64,000 bases of DNA from Kondoa subrosea (lineage: Eukaryota). Shown piece by piece: positions 24,157-31,388 of the stretch (positions are counted from its first letter, which is position 1; each line of letters opens with the position of its first letter). The stretch lies in the NCBI GenBank assembly GCA_039545335.1, contig BCIN01000005.1:1333946-1397945 (forward strand), given 5' to 3'. A program made the translations under genes and the position numbers. The notes beneath the pieces were generated by a model, which was not told the origin of the DNA, ran no database searches, and saw only the letters and a program-made list of their open reading frames with translations.

Positions 24157-25535
24157 ATGAGCGCAACGGATCTTTCGTCCTTTACAGAATCTGTTATCGC
24201 TTCGTGGGTCTTACAATCCCTGCATCAGAGATTCTACTGATCGATTCATCCTTAGCATTGGCAAGGATGCTAATCCTCGAGCCAAAAAAGCTCTGCCTAT
24301 ATGTTTGTGATGTTGTTGGCTCGTTGACTGCCTCTGATTCGATGGATCGAAGTGATTCGCAAGCTTCATGAATTCTGTATTGAAGCAGATGTAACTGTAG
24401 AAGAATGGATGGATACTTGCAATCTGGTTGTAAAGGCAGGTCTCACCCTTTAGCGCTCGTCAAGCTCCTGGCTCATTTTGGAACTCAAGGCTGGACAAAT
24501 GTCGTCTCCAATGCGCAATGAAGTCATTCTGATGACGGATGTCTTGGGCATCGAATCGCTCGTTGACACTCTCGCTCAAATCAGGAACTCCAAATCTTCT
24601 GAAGCAGTCGCAACACATAGCGCTATTCTCGGTCCTTTCTACCGTCAAGGGGTCAAGCATCAGCCAAACGATACTTCTATCATTCGACAGGTATGTGCCT
24701 AGTAGTCTTCTCGCTCTCTTCGCTTATAACTTTGCTCCTTGCTTTTCATAGGAAGAGAAGGATGGAGACTATGTCTATTTAACCGGAACAGTGTATGATC
24801 AAAATGGCAAGCCTCTAGCGGGAGCGATCCTGGATGTTTGGCACGACGCACCTGATGTATGAGATCTTCTTTAATTGCCGGTAATTTACCCTAGCTAATC
24901 CTGCCTGCTATCGTAGGGTTTATAGTGAGTAGACCTAGTCAACAGCGAAAACGTAACTTTGATTGTGCTTACAAAGTGACTCGCAATCTCCCGACAAGCC
25001 TGAACATCACTGTCGAGGACGCTTCGAATCGGACGAAAAGGGTCGATATTCTCTTGTTTGCTTGAAGCCTTGTCCCTATCCAATCCCATACGATGGACCT
25101 ACTGGTGATATGCTGAAAATGATGGACAGACACCCTTATCGTCCAGCTCACATTCACTACATGGTACAAGCTCCAGGACATCGTTCTTTGGTTACTCAAG
25201 TTTTCGATCGCAAGTCAAAGTACTTGGAAGATGATTCAGTCTTCGCTGTGAAAGTATGTCCATGAGTAAGGGATGTTGACACTTCTGATCGCGCAACTTT
25301 GATATCGTAGGATAGTCTCGTCGTTGACTTTGTGCCTCTCGGGGATAGCAAGCTTCCTAAAGATTTGCCCGATGGAGACAAGGTATAGGATCTTCTCTCT
25401 CTCTCCATTCCGGTAACATTATCTCACAGAGGTCGACAGGTCCGATACACCTTGAATTACGATATTCACCTTGCTGCCGCTAGCGATTCATCGATCTCCA
25501 TCGAAGCGCCGGTTGGTGCTGAAGTAGCTAAATAG
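24157..25535 (+). CDS. Intradiol ring-cleavage dioxygenase, fungal catechol 1,2-dioxygenase-like
   Basis: AGQMS..RNEVILMTDVLGIESLVD, SAILGPFY, WHDAPDGLYDSQ (Fe-ligand Tyr), PYPIPYDGP (Tyr), RPAHIH (two His), DDSVFAVKDSL. Confidence 0.9.
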
Positions 25536-25638
25536 CCATTTTGATTGATGTCTATGTATATCGAATTTGTATGCGTTATGCAAAATGTAGTACAATTGTC
25601 ACAAATCGACACTAAATGATGGTATTCCACTTGTTATC

Positions 25639-28635
25639 TTAGTTGAGCCATTGAGCTGTTGCAGCTCCTCCTTCGGGTAGTTTGACACGAGCCACTTCTC
25701 TAAATTTATCCCCTAACCAAGATACAACCATTACTTGACCAGTTTCCGAGCAGGTGAGTGAAAGGTAATCTTTGTCGTTGCATTGGAATGGTGCACTTTC
25801 TATAGCGTTCGCCCATCCACCCGAAGTAGGTGTCTGCCATATCTGTAGCGAAGTATCTGGACTCGATAGAAAACCATCTTCTCTCAAGGCATAGGCGGCT
25901 AAGTATCCTTTGGTGCTTTCCTTTAAACCTCGCGTTGATGCGAACAGAGTTGAAGGTATATCTGACTGCAGAGAGAGTCGCACTTCATCGGCCCAGAAGT
26001 CTTTCTCGTCCTGATCTGCAAACACTATATCAGCACGCCTAATTACAACAGACCAAACATACCTTCAGGGATGATCCGACAACCTTGCCGCCATTCTAGT
26101 CCATCAACGGTATGTTCGAAGACATCGACCATGCAGGAATGCTCTTGTAAGCTGTAGACGACTTTGCCGTTCGGATGCGGCCAGACCTGTTGCATCTTAG
26201 TTCATGCTCTGAAATTGACAAGAACGACCTACATGTCTTGGTCCGTCGTTACCTCGTGTTGCTGTGACCTTCTTTTGCGAATGAGTTTTGCCCTGCTCAT
26301 CGACTTCAAAGGTCCAGATACAATTCCGTCCACTATAGGATGCGCACTTAGCATGCGTGGGAATAAAGCAGTCCCTATGACTCACATGTCTGCAACGTAA
26401 AGCGTCTTTCCATCCGGCGAAAGGTCTGCTGAATGAGCGCCGTGTCTTAGCCCACCGAAATCCATCACGGAACCAGAATCTTGCTGTTGCGAAGGATCAA
26501 CGAAAGATAGAGATTGCTGAAGATCTTCCAATGCTCCTGTCTTTTGATTGATAGCGTATACTTCACCCGAGGCGCCACCAGCTGAGTAAGCTGAAGTCGC
26601 AGATACTGTAACATAACCAGAACGTGATGCAGTTGGAACGCAACTGAGAAGCTCTATTGACGGTATTCTATTATCATTGTTGATGTGATAGGAAGATAGA
26701 CTGGGTGGATTCGACCAGCATGTAGCGTAAAGATGAGTTTTCGCAGACTAGGCTGCATTAGCTCGAGCTCTGGATGTGAAGGTTGGAACATACGTTGAGT
26801 GCAAGCCAAGAATGAGATCCTTTAGCTTTATGCTGGGCAATGATATTTAGAGTTTCGGCTTCGTGATCGAATTCGAGCACTTTCATCGAAAGATCAGCTC
26901 GACATGGAACTAAAGAGCAAAGAAGCATACCATAGAGATGAGGACTATCGAATGTTCCAACAAGCATCTGATGTCGACTTGTAGGAGCATGAAATCCATT
27001 TGTCTGTCGTTTCTCTCTAGCAAAACAGAACGTTTATCAACATAAAATCCTTGCACAACGTCTGCACACATAGCCTACGAGACAAACTTGGAGATGAGAC
27101 CTCCCACTTCCGCTGGCGCTTCTACAGCCTGCCAGTGTCCTATTTCAGGTAATATCTCCACCTTGCAATTCTGGATCTTGGCTTTGAGCGAATTGAGTGC
27201 GCTTGGACTTGCCATTTGATCTTCCGCACCTCCTATGAGTAGTGTAGGAGCACTGATACTAGCATAAGCCGGATCTGTAGCTTCCGCCAAAGCATCGCAC
27301 GCAGCAATGTAAGCCAACGGCTGAGTGGATTTCACTAGCTCTTTGACTTGGTTGACCACTTTTGGATTGTTGGCCTTGGTGCGCTTAGATAGAGCTCCGT
27401 TTGCTACAGCTTCGGAGACGGGATCTATGCCTTTTGAGCGTATTGTGCTGGCGCGTGAACGGATATTGGCTTTGCCCGCTTCTGACATTTCTTGAACTCC
27501 TCCAACACAGACTAGAAACATTAAGCACAGGTAAAGAAGCAATATCAATACGCTCACTGAGATGCTTAATTCTTTCTGAATGTTCAGCTGCTACTTTCGC
27601 TACGACCATCTGTGGCAGAAAGATCAGATTTGCTTCTGATGAAGAATGTAAAACGTACCCCTGACATAGAATGACCAACAAGAGAAGCTTGTTCCAGATC
27701 CAAAGCGTCCATCAGATCAATAACATCCTTGCTCAGAGTTTCGATTGTAAGCGGGCCAGACAGAGGAGAATGACCATGTCCATCAAAGTCGACGAGATAG
27801 ATAGTATGTTTCTGCTTCAAGGAGCTTTGGAAAATGACTTCGTCCCAGTAGGTCGTATTCGATCCTAGGCCGTGCAAAAAGATAATAGCAGGACCGTTTC
27901 CCATTCTTCGTACATGCAATTTCTTGTTCGGCAGTTGAATCAAGGAGCTAATCTACTGATGAGAACAGAACTCGAGGAGAATAGTGAAACAGCAAACCTT
28001 TGGCAGCCAGGAGTTTGTTTCGGCATAGCTTTCGCCAGCTTGCCAGGAGTAGCGTCCTGAAAGCGTTAGTCAGCACAAGTAATCTCGATGTGTCACAGAT
28101 AGCTGACGAAGAAGACCTGGTAATGCTGCATTTTACGTGAATTAGAATCAGGAGTAAATTGCATCTGCTCGGGCAGAACATCAGAAGACTGGACTTGATA
28201 ACACTTCTGAGGAACTAACCCGAGCAGCAAAGTCTGTTCCATGTGCAGAGTGGCCATTCTCATAATCCAAATCTACTTGACCCAGCAAAATGTAATCGTT
28301 CGCTTTCCCTCCAGTTTCAGTTTGTGCTGCCGCAGGATACACTTGAAAGACGGTATGTTTCCGCTTGACTACTCCATGCCACATGGCTTTGCGCAGATCC
28401 GCAATCTTAGAAGCTGGTATTTCAGCATTGCCAAATTTGAGAATTGCACTATAATATTATCAACACCAGAGTCAGCAACCCTTCTGAGTGACGATGAACA
28501 TGTCAAAACGACAGACTTGGCAGTGAAACAGTCAATATAGGCTTGAGTTCCGTTTCTGTCATCGCTGATTACAAAAAAGCGAGTGATGAAGTCCAGTACT
28601 TCTGGGTCTAAATCTTTGGGGACTTTGATCACCAT
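25639..28635 (-). CDS. Predicted three-domain fusion: SnoaL/NTF2-like domain + 3-oxoadipate enol-lactone hydrolase-like alpha/beta-hydrolase + beta-propeller muconate cycloisomerase
   Basis: Exons 28635-28517, 28448-28220, 28164-28108, 28056-27998, 27947-27659, 27609-27558, 27511-27079, 27016-26931, 26879-26794 and further exons to the stop at 25639 stay in one frame using GT-AG introns. Hydrolase: HGLGS, GHSMSG, GAEDQMA, GHWQAVE. Cycloisomerase: VGTF, SHSWL, MDFGGLRHGAHSADLSPDG, DGPRH, LQEH, FWADEVRLS, TPTSGGWANAI. Domain identities are more certain than the single-transcript model. Confidence 0.75.
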
Positions 28636-28891: not shown

Positions 28892-31388
28892 TCAATATAA
28901 GTCACCCTCACTGTCCATCAGGATATCTCCCTCGCAATCACTGTCTCTTCCTTGAGCAAAGCTTTCTTCCTCTTCCGAATCTTCTTCTGGATGCAGATAC
29001 GGCAAAGGAGACGGCAAGCTGTTTTCACCCTCTTGCAGCCTTGCGAATCTCCGTTCTTCATCAATGGCTTCTTCATCAATCGCTTCAATATCACTGTACT
29101 CAACCATGTCATCTTGCGCTACATCCTCTTCTGCTTCTAACCCTGCCAGGTATTCAGCTTCCGTTTCGCCAAGAACTTCATCTTCTGGTTCTCTTTCGAG
29201 ATAATCTCCTGCTTCTGAGACTGGTGGCGAGTAAAAGACTGGTTCCCCGTATATGAATTCTTCCTCTTCTCTCCCAGACGTTTCCTCTTCTTCTGATTCT
29301 TGTATAACTCTTCTAGCAGGTCTTGCATCACCAAGATATTGGATCTCGTCCTCTGCTTCGTCATCATCATCATCAGGGATGATGACTCTTCGTCTACGAG
29401 GAGCAAGCGGTTCGTCTTCATCGCTGTTTTCTTCTTCGTCACTTGCATAGACATCACTTGCATAGACAGAATGCTGGACCATCTCTCCTCCTCTGCTTAG
29501 ATGATGAAAAAGTGTCTCTTCATCGCTTGCACTTCGTTCTTCACTTCCAGATTCGTCCGGAAAGTCACGAGTCAGGTCACGAAGATCAACGCCTTCTGAT
29601 CCTTCTTCTTCTTCGGACCCTTGTCCAGACGCTGAAGCATCGCTATGCGGGTGATTGTATGATAGAGTACGACTCGGTACTCCTCGCAGCGTCCCGCGTG
29701 GTGGACCGGAAATTTCTGATCCTTCCTCTTCAGAATCGGAAGTGGGAATGCGTCGGTTGATAATGGATTGATCTTGAGTTGAATTGACAATGAAATCATC
29801 CAATTCGCTGTCTTCCTCTTCTTCATCTTCTGATCGGATCTCAAGATTTTGTCCTCCTGGAACATCATCTGGGAAAAGATTATCTCCTTCTGAGAAATCT
29901 GCTGCAGCATCTGAATCATATTCCATCCCGCTATGAAAGGGAAAGTAGCATAAGAGAACGAGCCCAAAGCAAGAGGAAACAGGACTGACCAATTTCCGCA
30001 TACACCATCTTCAACTTCCCAATGACAATTCATACACCGATTGACACCATCTTCCAAATCTCGCAAGCCTCGCCGAACAGCTTGAGCATAAGTAGTTCTC
30101 CGATCGTCCATGTCTTGAAAGATACCCTGTAGGAGAAAACACTGATTGAGCTGCGAAACACAGCTAATCAAGCGAATCTCGTACATTCCACTCATCTCCG
30201 TCCACAGCTGTGGCTCTAGCGGGACTCTTGGTGATCGCTCTTTCCTCTTCACCACCTATAAACAATAAACCACCAGCTACTTCCTGTTGCCTGATCCGCG
30301 CAGTCAAATCGCGAACGACAAAGACAGGGAAAGGTCGAGTAGTGATTTTGTGACGGCAAGAAGGACACTCAATCTTCAAAGGAGTGTCGGAAGTAGTTGC
30401 TATTTGGTTCGAGTGCGAAAAGCAGTCTTTCAGACAACCTCGACAGAAGACATGTCCGCAAGAGAGACTATAAGTGCACGCAATGACAAGTTAGCCGTAT
30501 CCACAGCAGAAATGTGTGCGAGACTCACGCTAGAGGATCGGTGTAGGTTGATAAACAAATTGAGCAATTCAAAGCTTCTTGGGTGAAGGTAGTGATTATT
30601 CTATGAGCATTGAGCAATTCATCCTTGAAAGCTAGTTCCAGCTTGAGCCTCTCGATTTCTTGTTTAAGTGCATCAGATTGTGTACCAGCTGCTTCCAAAG
30701 GCGAAGTAGGAGCAATTACTGCTTCTGTAACCACAGCTGTAGTAACGATCTCTAAACCAGGAGAGGATTCGACACATCCACCCCAACCTGGCGCTTTGCC
30801 TTTGCCCTTGTTCTTCTTCTTGCGCTTCTTTTGAGCTGAAGTAGGCTTAGAATCAGAATCATCAACAGGTGTAGCATCTTTCGAAGGAGCGTCATTGTTC
30901 ACAGCAAGAAGAGGAGCCGAAGAATCGACAGTCACCACCGCATCCGCTTGAATAGGTTCATCCTGGTCGAATTTGACAGTAGCAGAGTAGTCCTCGATAA
31001 CCTCAGTTTTGGTCTTCTTGCTCTTTTTGCCCTTCTTCGCTGAGACTGGCCCATCAACGAAGAGTATCGAGGCATCCAAGTCTTGCTCAGGTTCTGGCTT
31101 GACCTGTTCATCTTGCAAAGTAGCAGATGATTGAGCGCTCAAATCGCGTTCCTCTGCATGTATTGCCTCTGAATCAGACTCGACTTTTGCTGCAGCACGT
31201 TTCCTCTTCTTTCCATGACCAGAAGATTCAGGTCGAGCATGAGCTAAGATGGGATCATAAGATTGTCTTGAAAAGCTTCGTCTAATGCTGCGTGAAGCGC
31301 TTCCAGAAGGGCTACCATGCTTCTTATACTTCTTGGCTGATCCACTGGCTTCAGCTAAAGCTGCTAATTCGCGTTTCCTTTTGCCCAT
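28892..31388 (-). CDS. C3HC4 RING E3 ubiquitin ligase with long acidic tail (Psh1-like)
   Basis: CSIC..CGHVFCRGC..CPSCR RING across an intron; DLEDGVNRCMNCHWEVEDGVC motif; E/D-rich C-terminal ORF 28892-30001. Confidence 0.75.

Follow-up and report, generated by a model that had tools for sequence, protein, structure and literature searches.

Within the beta-ketoadipate pathway, the catechol branch leads from cis,cis-muconate to 3-oxoadipate, and a locus of the fungus Kondoa subrosea raises the question of whether one polypeptide could carry a substrate over this whole distance. The locus occupies positions 28635..25639 on the minus strand of a 64 000-nucleotide (nt) stretch of contig BCIN01000005.1 (assembly GCA_039545335.1, positions 1 333 946 to 1 397 945), which is referred to here as the window. 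Judged from the sequence, the chances are roughly evenly balanced that these positions constitute one spliced gene for a three-part protein of 790 amino acids (aa), which would consist, in this order, of an orphan N-terminal domain, a PcaD-like enol-lactone hydrolase and a muconate cycloisomerase beta-propeller. Fusion of the hydrolase to the propeller is the firmer part of this proposal, and we regard it as probable.

When 12 GT-AG introns of 46-68 nt are removed, 13 exons combine into a single open frame that runs on the minus strand from an ATG at 28635-28633 to a TAA at 25641-25639; the spliced coding sequence of 2373 nt translates into 790 aa. A preliminary description of this stretch had proposed one spliced frame of roughly 790 aa, and all of its coordinates were reproduced, including those of the three introns at the domain junctions, as were the junction peptides. 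The donors of all nine within-domain introns and of all three junction introns conform to GTNNGY. The N-terminal domain (aa 1-135; 28108..28635) is specified by exons 28635-28517, 28448-28220 and 28164-28108, separated by introns 28516-28449 and 28219-28165. It is followed by junction intron J1a (28057..28107; 51 nt, GTCAGC...GCTGACTAAC...CAG), by linker exon 4 (27998..28056), which after splicing and translation reads DATPGKLAKAMPKQTPGCQ, and by intron J1b (27948..27997; 50 nt, GTTTGC...TTAG). The alpha/beta-hydrolase domain (27079..27947) comprises exons 27947-27659, 27609-27558 and 27511-27079 with introns 27658-27610 and 27557-27512. Beyond junction intron J2 (27017..27078; 62 nt, GTAGGC...TTGAT...GCTAG), the predicted seven-bladed lactonase-type propeller (25639..27016) is assembled from exons 27016-26931, 26879-26794, 26747-26386, 26332-26233, 26186-26063 and 26015-25639. 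In the spliced frame, junction 1 thus reads HYQVFF followed by DATPGKLAKAMPKQTPGCQ and then SSLIQLPNKKLHV, and junction 2 reads KFV-S-EKRQTNGFHAPTSRHQMLVGTF.

The three junction introns differ in quality. J1a, with CTGACTAAC, matches a strict intron pattern and surpasses the other two in its splice signals; an alternative in-frame acceptor is present at 28039. If J1a is retained, the frame meets a TGA at 28095-28093, four codons past the donor and after VFFVSYL, so that the earlier statement that no stop follows the first domain holds for the spliced frame and fails for the unspliced one. Removal of J1b is needed in every model, because the exon that opens the hydrolase fold (SSLIQLPNKKLHV...) lacks an ATG ahead of the conserved first strand; the alternative J1b acceptor at 27953 leads into a stop, as checked by eye. 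J2 matches a relaxed pattern only, has a second in-frame donor at 27087, and its donor GTAGGC overlaps the unspliced hydrolase stop (TAG 27077-27075). Retention of J1a or J2 would therefore give shorter products of 139 aa or 413 aa, and a mixture of isoforms is possible. A 54-codon open reading frame (ORF) in another frame (27071-26910, minus strand) begins with an ATG just past the hydrolase stop and extends over the first part of the propeller coding region; with J2 retained, a stand-alone propeller would have it as an upstream ORF.

How readily would such a frame arise by chance? Bare counts of intron patterns were too permissive on this point: random sequence gave about 92 strict and 211 relaxed matches per strand, where the window had 104-160 and 243-317. 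We therefore adopted a test at ORF ends, which scores a read-through when the frame can be extended by at least 29 open codons past the end of the ORF through a GT-AG intron that is 44-72 nt long and has a branch motif. First-order Markov random sequence served as background. Among 17088 random ORF ends, 219 (1.3%) passed with the strict branch motif and 444 (2.6%) with the relaxed one, while the window itself gave 34 of 430 and 52 of 430 respectively. Junction 1 allows a read-through even with the strict motif, junction 2 with the relaxed one, and both offer an additional in-frame site. By this measure, one spliced frame explains the locus better than chance does.

Codon usage pointed in the same direction. 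A score derived from five other ORFs of the window with Pfam support was best in the frame of the model for 13 of 13 exons, the three N-terminal exons and both linker exons included. Each of the three N-terminal exons scored positive in the model frame only, and by this measure aa 1-135 are coding. The linkers were also considered by themselves; both downstream parts contain an internal in-frame ATG. In exon 4, ATG 28026-28024 (MPKQTPGCQ...) is the sole possible start for a stand-alone hydrolase; the 10 codons (30 nt) upstream of it reach a coding-like score of 7.2; among stop-free segments, 0.1% of those off-frame and 1.5% of those drawn at random from the window score as high. In the first propeller exon, the 16 codons upstream of ATG 26967-26965 (MLVGTF) read ...HAPTSRHQ, and the exon has no further in-frame ATG upstream. 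The resulting HAPTSRHQ-MLVGTF is akin to the N-termini of stand-alone propellers (MAPHHFLVGTF, MAPRQFLVGTF) and to the junctions of fused proteins (APTSYDILMGTF). All 161 stand-alone homologues begin upstream of the position of ATG 26967, the closest of them by two residues.

On its matches, the C-terminal part is a fungal-type muconate cycloisomerase propeller. It shares 50-54% identity over about 365 aa with fungal proteins named 'muconate cycloisomerase 1' or 'carboxy-cis,cis-muconate cyclase'. At E ≤ 1e-3, 214 of the fetched proteins match it, the best with 53% identity over 395 columns (E 2e-136). Single propeller exons hit Pfam Lactonase (PF10282) at E 0.004 and 0.02, under the gathering score, and the full-length homologues at 50-54% identity all carry PF10282. 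For one of these homologues (P0001), the best solved relative is PDB 1JOF, the CMLE of Neurospora crassa (E 2.2e-18). The motifs GAHSADLSPDG, GPRHVWPHPNG, LQEH and ADEVR are present in the translation and conserved in the homologues. A metagenome scan with exon 10 of the gene yielded just four distant loci at 25-42% identity. Two propeller proteins carry additional domains and could be either fusions or merged gene models, namely P0322 of Sporobolomyces salmonicolor (702 aa, with extra PF20263 and PF05347) and P0343 of Fulvia fulva (650 aa, with a short-chain dehydrogenase).

The middle part is best matched by PcaD-like 3-oxoadipate enol-lactone hydrolases, and this is the function that we assign to it provisionally. 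Pfam Abhydrolase_1 was found at 2.2e-12 on the exon 5 ORF and at 1.5e-4 on the exon 7 ORF. Among NCBIfam models, exon 7 was matched by PcaDC (5.6e-22), PcaCD (4.9e-21) and PcaD (TIGR02427, 5e-17), ahead of the next family at 4e-5; for exon 5, PcaD ranked second (1.3e-15). The scores for the Pca models lie far under their curated cut-offs because single-exon fragments of a eukaryotic protein were scored. An earlier search with exon 7 had returned 894 candidates, none at E ≤ 0.001, and was replaced by a HMMER search. The hydrolase motifs GHSMSG, GGAEDQ and IGHWQAVE occur in the translation and align in the homologues; we take GHSMSG, AED and GHW to be the Ser-Asp-His catalytic triad. All hydrolase and propeller motifs that had been listed in the preliminary description were thus recovered. 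In a hydrolase of Rhodotorula toruloides (P0138, 297 aa), the gene model of one strain ends in a low-complexity NGVNGVNGV tail, whereas models from other strains of the species end at 269-270 aa. This tail, which is akin to the Asn/Gly-rich linker of the fused protein P0152 described below, may reflect intron read-through or an alternative end.

Precedents for the second junction came from the hydrolase side. A search with the hydrolase exon recovered P0152, in which a Lactonase domain lies behind the hydrolase; P0152, P0271 and P0286 are all uninterrupted ORFs that run from the hydrolase into the propeller. The spliced window model aligns with P0152 in one segment that crosses the junction (aa 249-789, 39% identity, E 1e-110). 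When P0152 was in turn used as query, 17 of the 120 matches listed covered at least 93% of it, P0152 itself included. Six of these 17 are complete, measure 634-645 aa and contain both Pfam domains: one is an intron-less ORF and five are NCBI records of tremellomycete yeasts, from Cutaneotrichosporon (P0276 of Cutaneotrichosporon sp. HIS471, 642 aa; P0283 of C. oleaginosum, 641 aa), Vanrija (P0278 and P0279, 639 and 640 aa) and Saitozyma podzolica (P0280, 634 aa). The databases label the fused yeast proteins merely as 'AB hydrolase-1 domain-containing protein'. The two-part hydrolase-propeller architecture is therefore already in public databases, in uncharacterised proteins, and the earlier remark that no example of the architecture was known has to be narrowed to the three-part form; that form was absent from the proteins listed, in a limited search that never set the N-terminal domain against large protein collections. 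A full-text literature search, supplements unopened, gave no description of a hydrolase-cycloisomerase fusion, and the consulted portion of a proteomics paper on Cutaneotrichosporon oleaginosum annotates the pathway steps separately. One further candidate precedent, the 895-aa protein P0367 from a Rhodotorula hydrolase cluster, was rejected, since it combines a hydrolase with a MuDR-transposase-like region.

These fused relatives support junction 2 and leave junction 1 without a counterpart, which brings up a division into two proteins: a 139-aa orphan ending at TGA 28095-28093, and a hydrolase-propeller fusion of about 645 aa starting at ATG 28026. This ATG sits 10 residues before the first hydrolase strand, just as in the fused homologues, which start directly with the hydrolase, measure 634-645 aa and have no N-terminal domain. 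Such an arrangement would, however, leave a gap of just 66 nt between the first stop and the ATG, would ignore the junction intron with the best splice signals, which matches the strict pattern, and would place the 10 coding-like codons upstream of ATG 28026 outside the protein. We consider it unlikely.

The converse division, which joins the N-terminal domain and the hydrolase in a 413-aa protein up to TAG 27077-27075 and leaves the propeller on its own, would make use of the strong J1a signals and would be analogous to the two-domain NRRL3_01409 of Aspergillus niger, so far as the consulted portion of its description goes (PMC10406623). It also draws on P0121, a fragment that is the nearest relative of the hydrolase (65% identity over 129 aa) and that stops at the same residue as the window hydrolase. 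The stop of P0121 fits a true stop as well as it fits a conserved phase-2 intron with a stop-like donor. The evidence on junction 2, that is, the alignment with P0152, the fusions in other yeasts, the late propeller ATG and the read-through test, runs counter to this division, as does the N-terminal domain of the window, whose exon fragments show neither an FAA-hydrolase nor any other recognised domain. A 413-aa protein beside a separate propeller is accordingly very unlikely in our estimate.

Several observations weigh against a single 790-aa protein, and that common stop of P0121 is one of them. Left unspliced, the three parts terminate at separate stops, and the ATGs of the hydrolase and the propeller lie at natural positions for stand-alone proteins. 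The branch motifs of J1b and J2 are weak, and the codon score of linker 2 is unremarkable when set against whole-window segments (17%). Rhodosporidiobolus and Rhodotorula supply the best full-length hydrolase matches, stand-alone proteins of 269-297 aa; among the 120 propeller matches listed, all are of 211-498 aa and none has a hydrolase domain. In midpoint-rooted FastTree trees, the window falls apart from the known fusions: in the propeller tree, 17 fused rows together with P0287 lie beyond a branch with support 100, with the window on the opposite side, and in the hydrolase tree the five fused rows group with support 99 to the exclusion of the window. A fusion in the window may therefore be a separate event. 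Our searches also returned no relative of the N-terminal domain, so that junction 1 has no comparative support. Finally, the genome is compact, with convergent stops only some 103 nt apart at the end of this gene, and short gaps are for that reason less telling.

Part of this evidence is equally that for three tightly packed separate genes or a polycistronic transcript, where the junction introns would be GT-AG pairs arisen by chance, or else minor forms, retained or alternative: the separate stops, the in-frame ATGs available to the hydrolase and the propeller, the stand-alone nearest relatives of both, and the compactness of the genome. Moreover, the catechol-branch steps of Aspergillus nidulans are assigned to the separate genes AN3895, AN4061 and AN4531 in the consulted part of PMC12388069. 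Against this stands the joint chance of two in-frame spliceable read-throughs, about 0.013 × 0.026. The spacings are also short: 66 nt separate the stop of the first part from the hydrolase ATG 28026 and 107 nt the hydrolase stop from the propeller ATG 26967 (about 108 nt had been estimated previously), which leaves no room for a terminator plus a promoter. In addition, a propeller starting at MLVGTF would be shorter at its N-terminus than all 161 stand-alone homologues, and the codons just upstream resemble their N-termini. We thus give three separate genes a slim chance.

The single spliced gene, if correct, would add to the two known parts an N-terminal domain of about 135 aa, which the preliminary description had called SnoaL-like. 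Neither this label nor an assignment as a muconolactone isomerase was borne out. The queries to profile and fold tools were single exons rather than the spliced 135 aa, and a distant NTF2-like kinship is possible. With such fragments, Pfam gave no family for exons 1 and 2 even at E ≤ 10, NCBIfam gave no family, and PDB sequences gave nothing below E 0.9; two ESM Atlas searches gave a best score of 0.89 and only unrelated or unnamed clusters. Pfam likewise detected neither an FAA-hydrolase nor a CMD domain (PF02627) in the exons of the gene. A JGI metagenome scan for the domain produced 230 pattern matches and no relatives, and local BLAST against the 361 fetched proteins found no relative. An AlphaFold2 model of the 76-aa N-terminal exon had a mean predicted local distance difference test (pLDDT) value of 52.6, too low for fold searching. 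In the full-text literature search, again with supplements unopened, no NTF2-type muconolactone isomerase was described.

What could this domain do? The gene is faced by a convergent intradiol dioxygenase gene of the catechol/hydroxyquinol 1,2-dioxygenase type (24454..25535, plus strand), assigned with Pfam and NCBIfam and with an inferred 3' end. Pfam detected Dioxygenase_C (1.1e-23) and Dioxygenase_N (1.4e-8); among NCBIfam models, chlorocatechol dioxygenase (9e-26) and catechol 1,2-dioxygenase (1.7e-24) ranked far ahead of the protocatechuate beta subunit (1.9e-7). The dioxygenase would open the catechol ring, the propeller would lactonise cis,cis-muconate and the hydrolase would open the enol-lactone to 3-oxoadipate. 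Since the locus appears to supply the first and third of the activities beyond ring opening, plus the dioxygenase, pathway logic makes the N-terminal domain a candidate for the intervening step from muconolactone to the enol-lactone. Together, the dioxygenase gene and the three-part gene would then lead from catechol to 3-oxoadipate, and the three-part protein might channel lactones between its active sites. The combination of a convergent catechol-type dioxygenase, a PcaD-like hydrolase and a fungal cycloisomerase propeller agrees with the previous description of the stretch as a beta-ketoadipate-pathway locus. Muconate is favoured as the substrate because the neighbouring dioxygenase is catechol-type, and the same neighbour argues against the alternative of a protocatechuate-type route, in which the propeller would make 3-carboxymuconolactone, and the hydrolase with the accessory domain would convert it in parallel to NRRL3_01409. 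In its fullest form, the proposal would be that the polypeptide truly has three activities, that its N-terminal domain represents a muconolactone isomerase (or lactone decarboxylase) of a new type, without kinship to those already known, and that its fusion is independent of the one in tremellomycetes; this conjunction is conceivable, but we hold it to be doubtful.

The presumed dioxygenase stop lies about 103 nt from the propeller stop (25536-25638), and the two 3' untranslated regions would therefore be very short or overlapping. On the other side, the stop of the upstream same-strand gene lies 256 nt from ATG 28635, the only same-strand gap measured nearby. This upstream gene (28895-30490, minus strand) encodes a very acidic, Ser/Glu/Asp-rich product with a RING-finger match (PF24921, 1.5e-7) below cut-off. 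The wider neighbourhood is of a housekeeping kind, with genes for a SUMO-activating enzyme, Mlh1, a La-domain protein and a myosin. A catechol-type dioxygenase gene and a fused or packed gene amid housekeeping genes thus suggest a two-gene catechol-branch island.

Fusions of enzymes from the same pathway strongly hint at functional coupling. If the three-part gene is real and its N-terminal domain, a candidate fungal muconolactone isomerase, performs the step in between, one protein would carry cis,cis-muconate all the way to 3-oxoadipate. Should the hydrolase-propeller fusion recur across distinct fungal lineages, this would imply that tethering benefits these two steps of ring breakdown, and the fusion would offer a compact module with which to engineer the metabolism of muconate or lignin aromatics in yeasts. 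If the fusion is not real, the locus would be a very tight but ordinary catechol-branch gene cluster. In either case, several yeast genomes already contain the two-part fusion without annotation.

Enol-lactonase-like hydrolases are readily fused to partners from their pathway. Of 18 long hydrolase matches that we scanned, eight carry an FAA_hydrolase domain, four a CMD domain and one a propeller. In the eight proteins of the first group (P0127, P0141, P0193, P0249, P0257, P0206, P0155 and P0266), a domain of the FAA-hydrolase family precedes the enol-lactonase-like hydrolase; they occur in actinobacteria (Williamsia, Gordonia) and in the smut-related yeast Moesziomyces antarcticus (598 aa), and one of 1023 aa has an additional amidohydrolase domain in front. 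They may belong to the family of NRRL3_01409. The latter is a bifunctional 3-carboxymuconolactone hydrolase/decarboxylase, which the consulted portion of its report describes as an N-terminal accessory domain followed by a C-terminal enol-lactonase-like hydrolase (PMC10406623). To that extent it resembles the window gene, as both place an accessory N-terminal domain before a hydrolase of the fungal beta-ketoadipate pathway; the window gene differs in the domain itself, which is of about 135 aa and has no recognisable family, and in the propeller that follows as a third domain.

Other known systems share single parts or the set of activities. Bacterial PcaD and the PcaDC/PcaCD (PcaL) enzymes provide the best NCBIfam models for exon 7, and in PcaL-type proteins, too, the enol-lactonase is fused to a pathway partner, which there is a CMD-family decarboxylase and here a propeller cycloisomerase. 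Stand-alone fungal propellers (PF10282; relatives of 1JOF) are 50-54% identical to the window propeller and keep GAHSADLSPDG, GPRH, LQEH and ADEVR; they differ in lacking a hydrolase domain (120 matches listed), and the 161 complete ones start with a Met at least two residues before (F/L)LVGTF. The catechol branch of A. nidulans comprises the same three activities as those proposed here but distributes them over separate genes, for muconate isomerase (AN3895), muconolactone isomerase (AN4061) and enol-lactone hydrolase (AN4531), according to the consulted part of PMC12388069; in Scedosporium apiospermum, the isomerase and lactonase orthologues adjoin, as the corresponding parts of two reports indicate (PMC12388069, PMC8283699). 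The closest parallel is offered by the tremellomycete fusions. These differ from the window in that they have no extra N-terminal domain, are 39% identical overall, and cross the junction in an uninterrupted ORF, whereas the junction in the window needs an intron that contains a stop codon. Yet like the window, they have an enol-lactonase-type alpha/beta hydrolase followed by a Lactonase-type propeller, with a short polar linker that ends AP(T/S)S-like before (L/M)(V/M)GTF.

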